NCBI GenBank assembly: GCA_040766895.1
Contig: JAXGPR010000002.1
Location: 16,991-80,990 of the forward strand
Direction: 5' to 3'
From: Anaerolineaceae bacterium
GTDB lineage: Bacteria; Chloroflexota; Anaerolineae; Anaerolineales; Anaerolineaceae
Length of the DNA: 64,000 nt
Of this stretch, positions 38,019 through 44,997 are shown in pieces. Within the stretch, counting starts at the first letter, position 1; each line of letters opens with the position of its first letter. A program made the position numbers and the translations under genes. The notes beneath the pieces were generated by a model, which ran no database searches, was not told the origin of the DNA, and saw only the letters and a list, made by a program, of their open reading frames with translations.

Positions 38019-38035
38019 TTTTTAAGTAAATGCTG

Positions 38036-38117
38036 TGGGGAAAGAGAGGCTCGAACTCTCACGCGTTGCCGCACATGATCCTAAGTCATGCCTGTCTGCC
38101 AATTCCAGCATTTCCCC
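38036..38117 (-). tRNA. tRNA-Leu (anticodon UAG), long variable arm
   Basis: Reverse complement GGGGAAATGCTGGAATTGGCAGACAGGCATGACTTAGGATCATGTGCGGCAACGCGTGAGAGTTCGAGCCTCTCTTTCCCCA. Acceptor GGGGAAA/TTTCCCC and anticodon loop CTTAGGA. Confidence 0.9.
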
Positions 38118-38786: not shown

Positions 38787-38858
38787 GAGTTTATTTACGC
38801 AATTTTGACAGAAGCTATAATAGATTAAGAATCCTTTTTCCAAAAAAGCTGTTTGCTT

Positions 38859-39590
38859 ATGGCTGAACAAATACGCATCGGCACTTCGGGTTGGCTCTAT
38901 AAACATTGGCAGGGGATTTTTTATCCTGAGGATATTTCTCAAAAGCAGTGGTTTGCGTATTATGCGCGTTCTTTTGATACTGTAGAAATCAACAGCACTT
39001 TTTACCATCTCCACAACGCGAGCGTATTCGAGCACTGGCGGCAACAAGCTCCAGGTGGCTTCTTATATTCAATCAAAGCCAGCCGTATTATTACGCACAA
39101 CCAGCGGCTCGAAGGCTGCCAGGACACATTAGAAACCTTTTTAAGCCGCGCCAGCCTCCTGGGGGAGACCTTGGGTCCTGTCCTTTTCCAGCTGCCGCCT
39201 AGTTTCTCGCTTGATCTCAGTCGGTTCGAAAGCTTCTTGGCTCTCCTGCCCCAGGGGTTTTCGTACGCGATGGAGTTCCGCAACCCCACCTGGTTGACGG
39301 AAGAGGTCTTTGCGTTGTTGGAGCGCTTCGGCGTGGCGCTCTGCATTCACGATATGCCCCCGCTGCAGGTGCCGTTACGCATTACCGCTAAGTTCGTCTA
39401 TTTGCGCTTCCATGGCGACGTTGACCATACTGGTGATTATCCTCTCGAGACGCTCGCGCTCTGGGCAGAGCGGATGAAAGCCTGGCAGCGCCAGGGACTG
39501 GCGGTTTTTGCATACTTCAATAACGACACCGGCGGGATGGCAGTGCGTAATGCACTGACGATTAAGCAGCTCTTGGGGCAGGGCAGCTGA
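38859..39590 (+). CDS. DUF72-family protein
   Basis: IRIGTSGWLYKHWQGIFYP...YARSFDTVEINSTFY is the DUF72 N-terminal signature. Confidence 0.85.
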   Translation: MAEQIRIGTSGWLYKHWQGIFYPEDISQKQWFAYYARSFDTVEINSTFYHLHNASVFEHWRQQAPGGFLYSIKASRIITHNQRLEGCQDTLETFLSRASLLGETLGPVLFQLPPSFSLDLSRFESFLALLPQGFSYAMEFRNPTWLTEEVFALLERFGVALCIHDMPPLQVPLRITAKFVYLRFHGDVDHTGDYPLETLALWAERMKAWQRQGLAVFAYFNNDTGGMAVRNALTIKQLLGQGS

Positions 39591-39599
39591 CCAGAGCGT

Positions 39600-41837
39600 T
39601 CAAACTTCTAAAAGCGCCCTGTTCCAAGTATCCAGTGGCAGTTGAATGCCACCTTTGAGCGTCCATTCCAAGAGCACCTGCGGGTCAATACCAAAGGGCA
39701 GCAGCACACTCCCGCCGGCTTTAGCCAGCAATTCCAGATACTTGTGCTGATTCAGCTTGGCGGGGTCCACTTGCCCGCCTAATTCCCAAGCGTATACATC
39801 CGGCTCGCCCTGCATAAATAGGAAGCGCACACGCTGCCCCGGGCGGATCTGCATGCCGGCAGCTTGCAGCTGGCGTGCAGCGCGCACCGAAGCCGTGGCG
39901 CTCTTGTAAGCCTCCAAGGCGTAGCTAACCTTGCCATTCACCACCAACAGCTCCGGCGGCACCTGACCTTGCTTCAACTTCCTGACGGATTGTTCATACA
40001 CCTGAAAAGCTGCGTGCAAAGCCTCTGGCAATTCGGCGCGGGTTTTTGCCTGACCCAGGCAAGTGAGCATTTCGGTTTGCACCTGAGCGATCCAGCGTGG
40101 GGTATCCCGCCGGCGGGCTTCCAAGCCGCGCACTTTAATCTCGCCGCTCTGGAAGACGCCAAAATAGCGGTTGGGGATGGGCACACGTGGGTCGGTTTTG
40201 GAGGGCAAAAAAGCCACCCAGCGGTAAATGCCATCTAGGGCAATCGCCAGCCCAGTGCGGCTGGAAATCTTGTGCATCACGTCTTCGAAATGCTCTGGCT
40301 TGCTGCAACCCTTTTTCTTCAGCCAAAGGGCATCCACGTACATGTGCAGCACTTCGAAGCCTTCTTCCTCGGCGACTTCTTTAGCGCGCAGCAGCACCTC
40401 GCGCCCGCCTTTAGTAACTGCCTCGTGTGCTTCGATGCGCCCGTAACGCGCATTTTTGTAGCCCAAAAAACCAAAGCAAACCACCAGCAGCCATTTCAGC
40501 GCCGCGGAGCGCGCTTTTAACGTCTTTGCCATGGGATGGTCAGGTGGGTAAAAGCGGGTTTTGGTTTTGAGTGCCACGCGCTTCTCGTAGATGGGCTTGA
40601 GCGTCAGCGGGACCACGCCCAGCTCTTCGCTAGCTGGTGTGAGCACATCTGGCAGCGGCACTTCCGGAGAAATATTGCCATGAATGATGACTGCTGGGTA
40701 CATGGAGACGAAATCGATCTCAGCTACGTCGCTGTGCAGCCCCACTTTGGGCTGGTAGATCATCCCGCCGCGATCGGACTGAATCAGCTGCAAACCGCTT
40801 TTAAACTCTTCTACTTGGCGCTTTTGATAGGGCACCAGGATGTCTTTTTGCAGTGCGGTAATTACTTGCATAGCTGAGATGCCCTGACCAGGCGAAACGC
40901 GCGCCGCTTTTTCGATGGGCAGGGTGGTAACGCGCGCCATCTCTAACGTGCCGGCTAAGCTGTAATCGGACCACATCATCGCGGATTTGCGGTCAACGTG
41001 GCAGCGCCCGAAGAGGTGCGCTTCCTCCGGGCGGAAAATGATATGACCATACGAAAAATAGGTGATTTCTTTCTGCCAGCGCACCGGCCGGCTGAGGTCG
41101 CGGTTGAGCGCCAAGGGAATGCCTAACTGTTCTGATTGCCGTAGCAGGAAGGGCAGCAGCCAACTATCTCCCCAATCCGTTACCAAAATGTCTGGGTCAT
41201 AAGCTGCGAGGGCTGCATTGATCGCTTGCAGGTAATTGCCCTGCGCGTCCAGCGGCAGGCTCTGGCTAAAGCGGTCCGAGCGCAGGCTGAGCGCCTGCAC
41301 TGCGCTGTGGGTAGGGTCTACGTCGGGCGTAAGCTCCAGAATGCGCAAGGGTGGCAGCGCGGGCATCACATCCCAGCGGCTGTTGAGCGTCTCTAAGGAT
41401 TGGATGCGGTTCTGGCTGTCGGCTTCCAACTGGCACAGCGCCAAAGGAAAGGCGCCATAGCGCGCGATGTAACGCGTGCTAATGGTTACATCTGCGTCGT
41501 ACCAAATCAGGGTGGGGAATTGGTCTTCTAGCCGGTGGAAAAGCTCCACTTGGTGGGCAGGTGTATCCACGTCGATCGCTAGTACGTCAACCGGATCCGC
41601 TACAAAGACGTCTTGCTTTTGTTGGCGGGTGAGCTTGGTGACGGCTGGCTCTTTGCGCAGCGCCTTCCATAAGCGGCGCAGGTCATCGGAGGCGCCGGCA
41701 GCGTAAAACGTGACTGGAAAGCGCTGGGTGAAGCAGACACGGCTGTCATCACTTTCGGAGATAAACCACAGCGTCAAGCCGTCTTGCTGGTTGAGGTACA
41801 GGTCCAGCAGCCATCCGCGGAAGGTTGGGTTGCTCAT
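39600..41837 (-). CDS. Family-B DNA polymerase, exonuclease motifs degenerate, atypical motif C
   Basis: Motif A DFVSMYPAVI (40715-40686). Motif B-like KWLLVVCFGFLGYKNARYG. Motif C position YVDALW (40340-40323) instead of YGDTDS. KxY-region NRYFGV...IKVRGLEARRRDTPRW. The ExoI/II/III positions read LRILELT, TDWGDSWLLPFL and YSLAG, without the expected acidic residues. Confidence 0.85.
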   Translation of the reverse strand: MSNPTFRGWLLDLYLNQQDGLTLWFISESDDSRVCFTQRFPVTFYAAGASDDLRRLWKALRKEPAVTKLTRQQKQDVFVADPVDVLAIDVDTPAHQVELFHRLEDQFPTLIWYDADVTISTRYIARYGAFPLALCQLEADSQNRIQSLETLNSRWDVMPALPPLRILELTPDVDPTHSAVQALSLRSDRFSQSLPLDAQGNYLQAINAALAAYDPDILVTDWGDSWLLPFLLRQSEQLGIPLALNRDLSRPVRWQKEITYFSYGHIIFRPEEAHLFGRCHVDRKSAMMWSDYSLAGTLEMARVTTLPIEKAARVSPGQGISAMQVITALQKDILVPYQKRQVEEFKSGLQLIQSDRGGMIYQPKVGLHSDVAEIDFVSMYPAVIIHGNISPEVPLPDVLTPASEELGVVPLTLKPIYEKRVALKTKTRFYPPDHPMAKTLKARSAALKWLLVVCFGFLGYKNARYGRIEAHEAVTKGGREVLLRAKEVAEEEGFEVLHMYVDALWLKKKGCSKPEHFEDVMHKISSRTGLAIALDGIYRWVAFLPSKTDPRVPIPNRYFGVFQSGEIKVRGLEARRRDTPRWIAQVQTEMLTCLGQAKTRAELPEALHAAFQVYEQSVRKLKQGQVPPELLVVNGKVSYALEAYKSATASVRAARQLQAAGMQIRPGQRVRFLFMQGEPDVYAWELGGQVDPAKLNQHKYLELLAKAGGSVLLPFGIDPQVLLEWTLKGGIQLPLDTWNRALLEV

Positions 41838-42268
41838 GGCGCCTCTTCGAAAGCGGTGTAGGAGACAGAAACAGATAAATCTGCTGGCACAGCTTGCGGG
41901 CTTTCAGCTGCTAATTCAAGCGCCTCCTGCGGAGCGAAGTTTTCCAGCGTTTCATTGAGCAGCTGCAAAAAACGGGCTTCTTTGCCAGAATTAAGCTGCA
42001 CTTGTGGGTCAGTAGATGCCTCGGCTTGGGCAACCTGCCTTTGCAGAGCCTTGAGCTCTTTGTAGACCTCCAGCAGAATGGCGATCAGGTACATATCCAG
42101 CGGGTAAAGGTTGGAAGCGTAAGAAGCCTCTGCCAAATGCTGGCGGGAAAGCACCAGCAATTCCTCCAGCAAAAGTTGGTCATCTTTACGCAGAGCGCGT
42201 TCAAAGCGCTTGAGGGCAGCTTCTTCCTGCAGCCAGGTTTGGGTGATGGATGCAATTGTGCGGCCCAT
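41834..42268 (-). CDS. Hypothetical helical protein (144 aa), middle gene of the PolB operon
   Basis: SD AAAGGAG lies 6 nt upstream of its ATG. Its TGA overlaps the PolB ATG (ATGA, 41837-41834). No recognised domain. Confidence 0.55.
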   Translation of the reverse strand: MGRTIASITQTWLQEEAALKRFERALRKDDQLLLEELLVLSRQHLAEASYASNLYPLDMYLIAILLEVYKELKALQRQVAQAEASTDPQVQLNSGKEARFLQLLNETLENFAPQEALELAAESPQAVPADLSVSVSYTAFEEAP

Positions 42269-42307
42269 AAAAGCTCCTTTCTATTCTATCGATAAAGCGA
42301 TAAAGCG

Positions 42308-42883
42308 TTACATCATCGCAAATAGCGTCGGCTGCAAACCTTGCTCGGCAGGCAGCGCGGACGGCTCTTCCCAATGCATGTCCGAAGATGAGCGTAGCTG
42401 GTCTAAAAAGCCAGTGCGTGCGGCAGAAATCTGCGGTACAGGCTTAGCACTCACCACCACGGGGGCGCTCTGACCCAGCAGCCGTAGGCAAGTCAGACTG
42501 CGCGTGAGCAAGCGCTGACTGTCTTTCAGCTCCACATCTTCATCCAGGAAGGTAGCCAGCAAATCCAGCACAATCAGCGGTTCGTGGGGCGGCGCTGCAG
42601 CAACGGCTTCCAGCATGGCTAGCACCTGATAGCAGGTGAAAGCCCGCGAGAGGCGGATATTTGCCATTACAGCGGCTGGGTCGGAGGTGTAGGGGCGGAT
42701 GGTTTTAGCCACCGCATACATGTTCGAGCGGTTGCCGCAATCCAGAATGGTGGCGCGCTGCTTGAGCGCTAAGGCAGCCACAAGCTCCAACATTTTCTCT
42801 GTGAGCGCATGCTGCCCAATGACCACCAGCAAGCCGGCGGGTAAGGGGTCCTTAAAGGGAATTAAGCTGAAATCTGCGTCCAT
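42308..42883 (-). CDS. RecA-fold-like protein lacking a Walker A motif (ImuA/SulA-like pseudo-ATPase candidate)
   Basis: The beta-strand LLVVIG is followed by QHALTEKM where GxxGxGKT/S would be. Walker-B-like PLIVLDLLATF. 191 aa from the second ATG (42883); the first ATG (42889) abuts the -10 hexamer. Confidence 0.5.
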   Translation of the reverse strand: MDADFSLIPFKDPLPAGLLVVIGQHALTEKMLELVAALALKQRATILDCGNRSNMYAVAKTIRPYTSDPAAVMANIRLSRAFTCYQVLAMLEAVAAAPPHEPLIVLDLLATFLDEDVELKDSQRLLTRSLTCLRLLGQSAPVVVSAKPVPQISAARTGFLDQLRSSSDMHWEEPSALPAEQGLQPTLFAMM

Positions 42884-42889
42884 ATTCAT

Positions 42890-42917
42890 ATTATATAGAA
42901 TATTTGTTCTATGTCAA
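42890..42917 (-). promoter_or_regulatory. Consensus sigma70-type promoter of the PolB operon (TTGACA-16 nt-TATAAT)
   Basis: The minus strand reads cctcTTGACAtagaacaaatattctaTATAATatgaatATGgac. -35 at 42917-42912 and -10 at 42895-42890. The predicted TSS is about 42883, the A of the second ATG. Confidence 0.55.
42896..42911. promoter_or_regulatory. SOS-box-like 16-bp imperfect palindrome (proximal), filling the promoter spacer
   Basis: The minus strand reads TAGAACAAATATTCTA. Core GAAC-AAAT-ATTC has one mismatch to GAAC-N4-GTTC. Confidence 0.5.
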
Positions 42918-42924
42918 GAGGCTA

Positions 42925-42940
42925 TAGAACATCTGTACTA
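42925..42940. promoter_or_regulatory. SOS-box-like 16-bp imperfect palindrome (distal)
   Basis: The minus strand reads TAGTACAGATGTTCTA. Core GTAC-AGAT-GTTC has one mismatch to GAAC-N4-GTTC. It is 29 bp centre-to-centre from the proximal box. Confidence 0.45.
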
Positions 42941-43061
42941 TTTTACAGCTTGTTTTGTCTGGCTGCAGGGGAGGAGCGTGTGAACGTCACCGGAAAAAGC
43001 TGATCCGATTGGTTATAATAATGCGCGAAAAGAGAGACATTTTACAGGTAGATGCATAAAG

Positions 43062-43481
43062 ATGACAACGATTAAAGGTAACGAAAGTGGCACCACGCTG
43101 CGCAACCGATTGAGCAAATCGATCGTGCAGGCGCTCCGCCTGCTCATGCAAAAGCAAGAGCCGGACGCAGAAAGCCGCGACTTGGCAGCTTATATTGTCT
43201 TGGCATTGGAGAAAATTACCGAGTCTGTCGAAACTACCGCCAGCGCTTGGGAGAAACGCGATTACTGGCTGAAAGCCGATCGCTTCCGCCAAGAATGGGC
43301 TTGGTGTGAAGCCAGAAGCCAAGCTTTGGCAGAAGCATTGCGAGCGGATGACTGGGCTGGTGTAGCACAGGAATTAGCGTTCATTGGTCAAGCGCTGCGT
43401 GGGGTGGAGGTAAGCACTAATAACCGCATTGGGAAGCCTTGGGTTGGTGCATGGGAAAAGTTTTCAGAACGACTTGCGTAG
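43062..43481 (+). CDS. Hypothetical protein (139 aa), divergent from the PolB operon
   Basis: GC-rich ORF with coding-like composition. Predicted helical and Trp-rich (DYWLKADRFRQEWAWCEARSQAL). No recognised domain. Confidence 0.5.
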   Translation: MTTIKGNESGTTLRNRLSKSIVQALRLLMQKQEPDAESRDLAAYIVLALEKITESVETTASAWEKRDYWLKADRFRQEWAWCEARSQALAEALRADDWAGVAQELAFIGQALRGVEVSTNNRIGKPWVGAWEKFSERLA

Positions 43482-44019
43482 ATTTTGAATGGCATTTTGA
43501 CATTTGCTCAACCCTTACGGTACAGAAATAATGGGTGAGGCATAAAAACCGAATTTTGGTTTATGGTTATGATAAGTATCATTATCATAAGCATTTGATA
43601 TCGAGCAAAAGGCGGCTTCTTAGCGAAAATTGGGCTGCTCCAAAGAGGCTTATTCTAATAGTGGATTATTCGACCGTAAAAATGTGAAGTAACAATATGT
43701 AGTAGATGAGCAGCACCTTGTATGTGCTGAATGTTTTCTACACCAAGATAATTCTTTTCCTTGATTTATTAAACTTTGCAATTCAATGCTAACTAACCCC
43801 TTTTTATTCGTGAGGTACGTTTACATCTCTTTATGATCATGTTGAAAATTACTTGTCACTATAGGATAAGAATATCTGGACAAAGGTATAGTGACAGTAA
43901 ATCTAAACTTGCTATTAAAAGTATAAAAAACTATACGCAATACACACTAAATAATGGGGTTAATAATAATATCCTACAATTTATCGAAACCATTCAGAAA
44001 ATACGTTATAATTTTACCG

Positions 44020-44997
44020 ATGAATGATAACCTCACCATCCAACAAGTCATCGATCGTTATCTCAATTCTGTGCGCCTCTCACGCAGCGCCAATACTGCT
44101 CGCACGTATCGTAACGCGATGCACCTTTTTATTACGGTGCTAACAGTCCACCAGATCGACCCGGAGCAAGAGCCCATTACAAAATTGGGTGAAGAACCAG
44201 TTGTTTGGATGACCACGGCGCTTAAAGACTATTCCGCGCATACTGAGCAATGTTACCTCACAGCAATGGTAGGTTTCTATGAATACCTTGCTGGAGAAGA
44301 CTTGGCGCAAATCAACCTGCCACGGGTACGGCTGCTCATCAAACAGCGGGCACGTAAACCCGGGATTCGCTTACCACAATTCCCCAAATCAGATATTGAA
44401 ACTGTCCTTGAATATGCTGCTAATCTAAACCAGCAAGAAACCAGTAATGAAATTGAGCACTTGATAAACCTGCGAGATCGTGCTTTTCTGCTCACCTTAG
44501 CTGATACTGGCTTGCGTGTGCATGAGGCGTGCAACCTACGCCGTGGGGATATCGATTGGCACGAGAGCCGCGCTGTTATCATTGGCAAAGGCAATCGAGA
44601 AGCAGTTTTACGCTTTTCTCGGCGCAGCTTGAGAGCAATCAAGGATTATCTTTCAGCGCGGGCTGAAATGGATGGAAGCGGCTCTAAAGCCCTGAGTTCC
44701 CTACCTGTCTTCGCACGCCATGATCGCGCCAGTGGAAAAAAGGTCAAACCTATCTCCACAACCACCGGACGCGAAATTGTCAATCAACGGGTACGTGAGG
44801 CGCTTGGAGAAGAAGCCGTGGGTACCATTACTCCCCATTCTTTCCGGCATTATTTTGTGACTACTATTTTGCTCGTATCTGGTAATCTAAAACTCGCACA
44901 GGAACTCGCACGGCACCAAAATATCGCAGTAACGCAACGCTATAGCCACCTGAGCGATGAGGAACTTGACCGTAAGTACATGGAAATCTTTGATTAA
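44020..44997 (+). CDS. Tyrosine recombinase/integrase (XerC/XerD-like)
   Basis: N-terminal SAM-like core-binding domain. Catalytic set: R (LADTGLRVHEA), K (GKGNRE), HxxR (PHSFRHYF), H (LARHQN), Y (TQRYSH). Confidence 0.85.
   Translation: MNDNLTIQQVIDRYLNSVRLSRSANTARTYRNAMHLFITVLTVHQIDPEQEPITKLGEEPVVWMTTALKDYSAHTEQCYLTAMVGFYEYLAGEDLAQINLPRVRLLIKQRARKPGIRLPQFPKSDIETVLEYAANLNQQETSNEIEHLINLRDRAFLLTLADTGLRVHEACNLRRGDIDWHESRAVIIGKGNREAVLRFSRRSLRAIKDYLSARAEMDGSGSKALSSLPVFARHDRASGKKVKPISTTTGREIVNQRVREALGEEAVGTITPHSFRHYFVTTILLVSGNLKLAQELARHQNIAVTQRYSHLSDEELDRKYMEIFD

Follow-up and report, generated by a model that had tools for sequence, protein, structure and literature searches.

A 64,000-nucleotide stretch of the genome of an Anaerolineaceae bacterium (assembly GCA_040766895.1, contig JAXGPR010000002.1), here termed the window, carries on its minus strand, between positions 42940 and 42881, a promoter-operator element directly upstream of a three-gene operon for iRadA, PPB2 and the family B polymerase PolB2. 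The operon is a PolB2 mutasome and displays every defining feature of this module that was tested. With a probability of roughly 70%, we consider that the element controls a translesion-polymerase operon inducible by DNA damage, by way of a LexA-type operator. The nearest named genomes to this locus are those of Candidatus Mesolinea within the Anaerolineaceae.

Read in the direction of transcription, positions 42940-42881 consist of operator 2 (TAGTACAGATGTTCTA, 42925-42940), the heptamer tagcctc, the -35 hexamer TTGACA (42912-42917), operator 1 (TAGAACAAATATTCTA, 42896-42911), the -10 hexamer TATAAT (42890-42895), the six bases atgaat and the ATG at 42881-42883. This agrees letter for letter with the layout given in an earlier note on the same DNA, and the further statements of that note on the core element hold as well: both hexamers match the consensus perfectly, a palindromic 16-mer (minus strand, 42911-42896) occupies the entire 16-nt spacer, and the cores GAACAAATATTC of operator 1 and GTACAGATGTTC of operator 2 are each a single mismatch away from GAAC-N4-GTTC. 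The centre of operator 2 is situated 29 bp upstream of that of operator 1, at about -49.5 from the predicted start.

On both strands of the 64-kb window TTGACA-N16-18-TATAAT occurs once, compared with 0.04 occurrences expected, making this the sole promoter there with 12 of 12 consensus positions, and TAGAAC-N4-GTTCTA with up to one mismatch occurs twice, both times at this promoter, compared with 0.15 expected; two occurrences of this 16-mer were obtained in three of 100 shuffles. Looser forms, including GAAC-N4-GTTC with one mismatch, appear at chance frequency in the window, so that the signal resides in the extended palindrome and its placement rather than in GAAC-N4-GTTC alone. No known RNA families were found in the region. 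Taken by themselves, the window statistics are suggestive, and it is the comparison with other genomes that carries the case.

For this comparison, 80 loci were fetched for the iRadA family, which is present in 303 species-representative genomes; all stem from Chloroflexota metagenome-assembled genomes (MAGs) and 79 include upstream sequence. The same promoter-box design was present in 78 of these 79 Anaerolineaceae species loci, down to 48% protein identity. TTGACA is found in 76 and TATAAT in 74 of the 78, with a spacer of 16 nt in 40 and of 17 nt in 38 cases, and a GAAC-N4-GTTC box lies in the spacer of every one of the 78 promoters (perfect in 57, with one mismatch in 21). When the 52 distinct promoter variants are compared, little or no variation is seen at the eight half-site positions, in contrast to the variable central N4; this is the pattern expected of a dyad that is recognized by a protein. 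The N4 is 86% A+T and conforms to RNRY in 38 of the 52 variants compared with 19% expected; a preference for RNRY in this place is an established rule for Cheo boxes. Furthermore, an iRadA homologue (profile E ~1e-28) on an unrelated metagenome contig is preceded by the same promoter design. The proposal that the spacer palindrome serves as an operator is thereby supported by its invariant half-sites as well as by the occurrence of the box in other registers in distant relatives (see below), and on these grounds we regard the element as almost certainly a true promoter of the PolB2 operon that is controlled by a repressor. As a separate observation, the six bases between -10 and ATG read TAGAAC in 25 of the 78 orthologs (34 with TAGRRC; e.g., L025-L057), thus providing a third half-site and a GTTCTA-TATAAT-TAGAAC inverted repeat around the -10; the corresponding positions in the window (42884-42889) are ATGAAT.

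The second operator, which had been noted previously at 29 bp upstream, is real and kept at a distance of 28-31 bp from centre to centre, but in one clade only: 13 loci of the clade to which the window belongs carry a one-mismatch box, TAG[TC]AC-N4-GTTCT, at this place. All 13 are among the 21 loci with an imperfect operator 1, and the 57 loci with a perfect one include no such case (Fisher p ~9e-10; the loci are MAGs and metagenome contigs, and neither these statistics nor those given below for GerE-family genes are corrected for phylogeny). Upstream of the operon, on the plus strand, lies a divergent gene for a protein of 139 residues and unknown function (43062-43481), which accompanies operator 2 in this clade alone. 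It is present in 21 of the 80 genome loci and in none of 81 more distant loci. Its product, modelled as a four-helix bundle, had no family match in Pfam, NCBIfam and PHROG-type scans, and the helical-bundle model no significant match in the PDB. Alignment of the intergenic regions revealed two conserved blocks only, i.e., the iRadA promoter and a TATAAT (43014-43019, plus strand) that is the probable -10 of the 139-residue gene. As the latter is at least 50 nt away from operator 2 and no other block exists, operator 2 belongs to the control region of iRadA.

The first T of TATAAT is located 12 nt upstream of the ATG at 42883; a Shine-Dalgarno (SD) sequence is absent and there is no room for one. 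An ATG follows exactly 6 nt after the -10 in 71 of the 78 loci. The in-frame ATG further upstream (42887-42889), on the other hand, is not conserved and probably not used, L014 and L015 having ATC and L013 having ATA in its place. Because these close relatives lack it, the ATG at 42883 is the conserved start codon, and its A is also the predicted transcription start. A -10 element at this distance has been used to call leaderless genes, with the form TAtaaT in groups of medium GC content including the Chloroflexi (Zheng et al., 2011, PMC3160421). Leaderless genes whose -10 abuts the open reading frame (ORF) (PMC3160421; Deinococcus-Thermus study, PMC12340547) share with iRadA the 12 nt from TATAAT to ATG and the missing SD sequence; unlike those, the promoter described here has a full consensus -35 and an operator in its spacer, and its transcription start is a predicted one. 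The internal genes of the operon differ from iRadA in that PPB2 is preceded by AAAGGAG (42274-42280, minus strand, 7 nt ahead of its ATG) and that the start codon of polB2 shares an ATGA with the PPB2 stop codon. Leaderless starts are the rule, albeit with exceptions, since a few orthologs (L071, L072, L078, L086, L106, L111 and L114) have short SD-containing leaders instead. Overall, the mRNA of the operon is very likely to be leaderless from 42883. A leaderless start at the second ATG, which had been proposed for the window, is strongly supported by the spacing, by the non-conserved first ATG and by the published signature, and the postulated lack of an SD sequence in front of the first gene was borne out, whereas the downstream gene PPB2 possesses one.

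The three genes of the operon are co-directional and tightly spaced in the order iRadA (42883-42308), PPB2 (42268-41834) and PolB2 (41837-39600), all on the minus strand. iRadA comprises 191 residues from the conserved ATG (193 in the ORF) and remained without family match in a Pfam scan. Its AlphaFold model (predicted local distance difference test score 79.7) is RadA/Rad51-like and matches only RadA, Rad51 and DMC1 structures in Foldseek, the top matches having a probability of 1.0. A Walker A motif (GxxxxGK[ST]) is absent, which points to an inactivated ATPase site, and the C-terminus, LQPTLF, contains a QxxLF beta-clamp motif with invariant Q186 and L189. PPB2 (144 residues) gave no match when hmmscan was run against Pfam, and its identity is therefore based on precomputed annotation (DUF8156, PF26485, on the identical gene in L001 and in other loci) and on its position. 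PolB2 (745 residues; PF00136) scores 375 bits with the NCBIfam model NF004416 for archaeal type B polymerases compared with at most 52 bits for DNA polymerase II (Pol II) models. In an alignment with Pyrococcus PolB, DIE is replaced by LET, the aspartate of NFD is lost and DTD is changed to YVD; with the acidic residues of Exo I and Exo II missing, the exonuclease is inactivated. Among the motifs in a table of PMC11791011, YVD is listed for PolB2 from Chloroflexota. Convergent to polB2, a DUF72 gene (38853-39590, plus strand; PF01904) is located.

The operon thus consists of the same three genes as the PolB2 mutasome (Makarova et al., 2014, PMC4104785; Timinskas et al., 2025, PMC11791011; group G2 in PMC12926913), in the only order seen in bacteria, and shares with it the RadA fold without Walker A and the QxxLF motif of iRadA, DUF8156 in PPB2, the degenerate exonuclease and the YVD motif of PolB2 and the DUF72 neighbor. 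The PolB2 mutasome is an archaeal translesion module that moved once to bacteria and retained a constant gene order; Anaerolineae are among the carriers listed, and DUF72 and lexA are enriched near the bacterial operons (PMC11791011). Archaeal PolB2 operons are damage-induced (as cited in PMC11791011). The identity of the operon, which had escaped the earlier note, strengthens the interpretation as an SOS-controlled system. The papers on the PolB2 mutasome deal solely with proteins and gene neighborhoods, and the term 'promoter' is absent from that of 2025 (PMC11791011); the operator, the promoter and the leaderless start are described here instead. On a more general level, umuDC, imuA-imuB-dnaE2 and E. 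coli polB resemble the operon in combining a translesion polymerase and a RecA-family accessory subunit with silencing by a promoter operator (here a predicted one), and E. coli Pol II is likewise an SOS-induced polymerase of the B family. Compared with imuA-imuB-dnaE2, however, the operon contains neither ImuB nor a Y-family or DnaE2/C-family gene and would work alike without being a member, and it does not belong with E. coli Pol II (polB, group G1) either, because PolB2 is of archaeal derivation and has a degenerate exonuclease as opposed to the active DEDDy exonuclease of Pol II.

More distant relatives were covered by 81 loci fetched from metagenomes, 53 of them with sufficient upstream sequence. 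In most distant loci, iRadA lacks the box and has a promoter of the type GGGATTG...TAnnnT-N6-ATG with upstream palindromes of its own. Among these box-less promoters, L094, L113, L122, L137, L147, L176:9440-9555 and many others have in common TGGCTCACCC-N3-4-GGGTTAACC and CCCC-N2-4-GGGGATTG as a weak -35, followed by TAnnnT-N6-ATG; the conserved elements are possibly activator sites, and the start would again be leaderless. In 26 of the 53 loci, a small gene of the LuxR/GerE family (PF00196) is situated about 200 nt upstream of iRadA on the same strand, and in 24 of these 26 it is this gene that is preceded by a GAAC-N4-GTTC box. Loci with a box promoter ahead of the GerE-family gene are L096, L100, L102, L112, L119-L128, L134-L139, L146-L149, L156, L164-L168 and L176 (e.g., L176:8930-9402). 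The box is placed within the spacer between TTGACA and TATAAT, in which case the ATG is often leaderless, before a TACAAT -10, after a TATAGT -10 or further upstream. Altogether, 43 perfect boxes were counted in 518 kb of the distant loci compared with 8 expected, 40 of the 43 being intergenic. The GerE-family protein has named relatives in Chloroflexota or Anaerolineales only, and the GerE-iRadA arrangement also exists on the complete chromosome CP070764.1.

In two of the distant loci (L164:5470-5730 and L167:5487-5747), an excisionase-type HTH_17 gene (PF12728), situated a few kb away from the PolB2 module, has the same composite box promoter in front of it, and a mobile element may use the same repressor there. 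Excisionase genes are a classic class of SOS-controlled targets. The occurrence of one and the same box at different genes and in different registers within one phylum indicates a trans-acting, phylum-wide factor. As a tentative generalization, to which we give somewhat less than even odds, the PolB2 mutasome would be wired to the damage response in two ways across the Chloroflexota via the GAAC-N4-GTTC module. In the Anaerolineaceae, control would be direct, with the box in the iRadA promoter and an auxiliary upstream site wherever the main one deviates from a perfect box. In another lineage, large and uncultured, the box would control a small LuxR/GerE-family activator gene, and its product would then activate an iRadA promoter that lacks the box, is leaderless and has conserved palindromes of its own. 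If true, this cascade would constitute an undescribed delay circuit leading from SOS via an activator to the mutasome. In the PolB2 literature, GerE figures solely as a count in a supplementary table, with no discussion.

Several loci deviate in gene structure. In L164 (1911-2834) and L167 (1928-2851), a GerE-like N-terminus and iRadA form a single ORF of 307 residues, possibly a fusion or a very tight overlap. On CP070764.1 (L176:9001-11600), GerE, iRadA and PPB2 are followed by a gene of the IF-2B family, and polB2 is not adjacent. polB2 is called as two ORFs in L172 and L173, and a RelB/ParE toxin-antitoxin pair lies between PPB2 and polB2 in L174.

With regard to the protein that binds the box, the motif GAAC-N4-GTTC is established for LexA of Firmicutes and Actinobacteria (PMC3323433; PMC4551915). 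The Gram-positive LexA operator (Cheo box or dinBox, CGAAC-N4-GTTCG, from Bacillus, Mycobacterium and phage GIL01) has the same dyad core and a 4-bp A/T-rich spacer and likewise overlaps the core promoter of a damage-response gene; its flanks are C/G as compared with TA/TA here. The combination of a strong site and a weak auxiliary one in dinBox1/dinBox1b of phage GIL01 is reminiscent of the weak operator 1 with operator 2, but the GIL01 boxes are located downstream of the start, whereas the operator fills the spacer here (PMC4551915). An identical box-in-spacer design is found on low-GC phage contigs. Moreover, lexA is part of the PolB2 operon in Leptospirillum (PMC11791011; PMC4104785), and lexA-bearing PolB2 cassettes are recorded for Nitrospirota, Myxococcota, Elusimicrobiota and similar groups, not for Chloroflexota, in the accessible portion of the supplement of PMC11791011. 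Apart from the genes discussed above, no upstream neighbor family is present in more than 31 of 76 loci and the common ones are metabolic; the lack of any neighboring regulator gene that follows the box in its distribution implies a global factor acting in trans. GAAC-N4-GTTC is reportedly also the motif of Dehalococcoides LexA. A literature search for a Chloroflexi LexA motif yielded nothing specific. Taking these points together, the repressor is probably LexA.

Several observations weigh against this assignment. Searches by tblastn with E. coli and B. subtilis sequences gave no match for lexA or recA, even at E=5, in the window, in 90 related loci (1.16 Mb) and in the 81 distant loci (0.45 Mb). 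No lexA, recA or uvr gene of this or a related genome is present in the 1.16 Mb plus 0.52 Mb of loci covered, and the 10 kb beyond the end of the window contain cinA and ftsH and no SOS regulator. Both operators of the window are imperfect, no box is present elsewhere in the window, and the association between operator 1 and operator 2 may reflect a single evolutionary event, the lineages being related. In addition, the lexA-iRadA-PPB2-PolB2 cassette of L173 (Nitrospiria), which was read directly, has a strong, near-leaderless promoter, TTGACA-N17-TATATT, followed by a perfect 8+8 palindrome, GGTAGTCA-aa-TGACTACC, over the lexA start codon (L173:2730-2800). This palindrome, a candidate operator of a cassette-borne LexA with another specificity, differs from the GAAC-type dyad, and the Nitrospiria cassette therefore fails to tie the GAAC boxes to LexA.

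A different trans-acting repressor of the Chloroflexota, responding to damage or to some other signal, could read the GAAC-N4-GTTC-like dyad in place of LexA. In the DNA scanned, the box is almost confined to promoters of PolB2 modules, as would also be expected if a regulator specific to them were encoded at another place; the motif of the Nitrospiria lexA cassette is a different one, and promoters of lexA or recA were not among the loci scanned, the role of LexA being one that we infer. Such a repressor nevertheless appears rather unlikely, because the motif is identical to the LexA box of neighboring Gram-positive phyla down to the A/T-rich RNRY spacer, the translesion polymerase module that it serves is associated with lexA in other phyla, the box is also present before an excisionase-like gene and no candidate regulator gene co-varies with it. 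Still far less probable is a local regulator, be it the divergent 139-residue protein in the clade of the window or an autoregulating GerE-family protein in the distant clade. In favor of the former are the divergent orientation of its gene and the co-occurrence with operator 2, but it is absent from 59 of 80 box-bearing loci and its four-helix-bundle model has no DNA-binding fold. The latter has in its favor that the box of the distant loci sits in the gene's own promoter, but no GerE-like gene exists in any Anaerolineaceae locus or in the window, and the iRadA promoter of the GerE-linked loci, the likely target of the GerE protein, carries quite different conserved motifs.

That a strong promoter with an A/T-rich spacer merely looks palindromic by chance would agree with the chance frequency of one-mismatch GAAC-N4-GTTC in the window; it is effectively refuted by conservation and hardly conceivable given that the extended 16-mer exceeds chance, that the half-sites are invariant over 52 variants while neighboring positions vary and that the box recurs detached from this promoter layout. 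An mRNA with a leader, transcribed from another start such as an upstream promoter with a -10-like hexamer directly next to operator 2, or translated from the first ATG at 42889, also seems improbable. L016-L023 do have TATAAT or TAGAAT immediately upstream of operator 2 and, as stated above, a few orthologs do possess short SD-containing leaders, but the constant 6 nt between -10 and ATG, the variability of the first ATG, the lack of space for an SD sequence in an operon whose internal genes have clear ones and the agreement with the published signature of leaderless genes all argue for a start at 42883.

In the preferred reading, i.e., a LexA-controlled PolB2 operon, a 16-bp palindrome like that of the Gram-positive LexA box fills the whole spacer of a consensus promoter for the housekeeping sigma factor, and a dimeric repressor, most probably the host LexA, would block RNA polymerase when bound at operator 1. 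Operator 2, about three helical turns (29 bp) upstream, would be the weaker site and would probably stabilize occupancy, a role suggested by the conserved mismatch in the main site. Upon DNA damage, RecA-stimulated self-cleavage of LexA would free a very strong promoter and transcription from the A of the ATG at 42883 would produce a leaderless mRNA for iRadA, with PPB2 being translated from its own SD sequence and PolB2 by coupling at the ATGA overlap. Within this scheme, we infer LexA as the protein, the exact transcription start and the cooperativity of the two operators from sequence comparison.

Further observations concern the surroundings of the operon and related elements. iRadA (42308-42889) matches phrog_16666 and PPB2 (41834-42268) matches phrog_26583, both PHROG families of unknown function (E ~1e-8), so that viral genomes also contain homologues of the two accessory subunits. 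The GC content of the PolB2 operon (39600-42900) is about 57% compared with about 46% in the surrounding genome, as would agree with horizontal acquisition. Nearby are a tRNA-Leu gene (38035-38117) and a gene for a Xer-like integrase (43954-44997); a tRNA-integrated island was considered and rejected in the absence of att-like repeats, despite the higher GC content of the operon and the integrase. Between the 139-residue gene and the integrase gene, the window is AT-rich and non-coding (43500-43950). At that spot, L003 and L005-L008, in which iRadA is identical, have a gene for 550 residues with a Competence-induced Ccs4_N domain, such that this place beside the integrase is strain-variable. 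Nine low-GC phage contigs (among L178-L188, IMG/VR) have in common an almost identical CATAATTGACAATAGAACATATGTTCTATATAATTGCTTTATCGCTACCT element, no ORF being located within 150 nt of it. The element may represent a promoter under LexA control in phages of the Firmicutes type, its transcript being non-coding or distant.

The operon and its gene-level association with lexA are already published (PMC11791011), while the PolB2 literature that could be searched makes no mention of its operator, consensus promoter or leaderless start. Bacterial PolB2 mutasomes are without experimental study, and their link with SOS rested on the adjacency of lexA in some phyla. The cis-regulatory evidence extends this link to the Chloroflexota, where lexA is not adjacent, and provides a precise operator, promoter and start site conserved in more than 100 species. 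Cultured carriers of the operon exist and include, according to PMC11791011, Bellilinea, Ornatilinea apprima, Longilinea arvoryzae, Pelolinea submarina and Brevefilum fermentans. The findings suggest that the abundant Anaerolineae of wastewater and digesters carry a tightly repressed and strongly inducible mutagenic polymerase.

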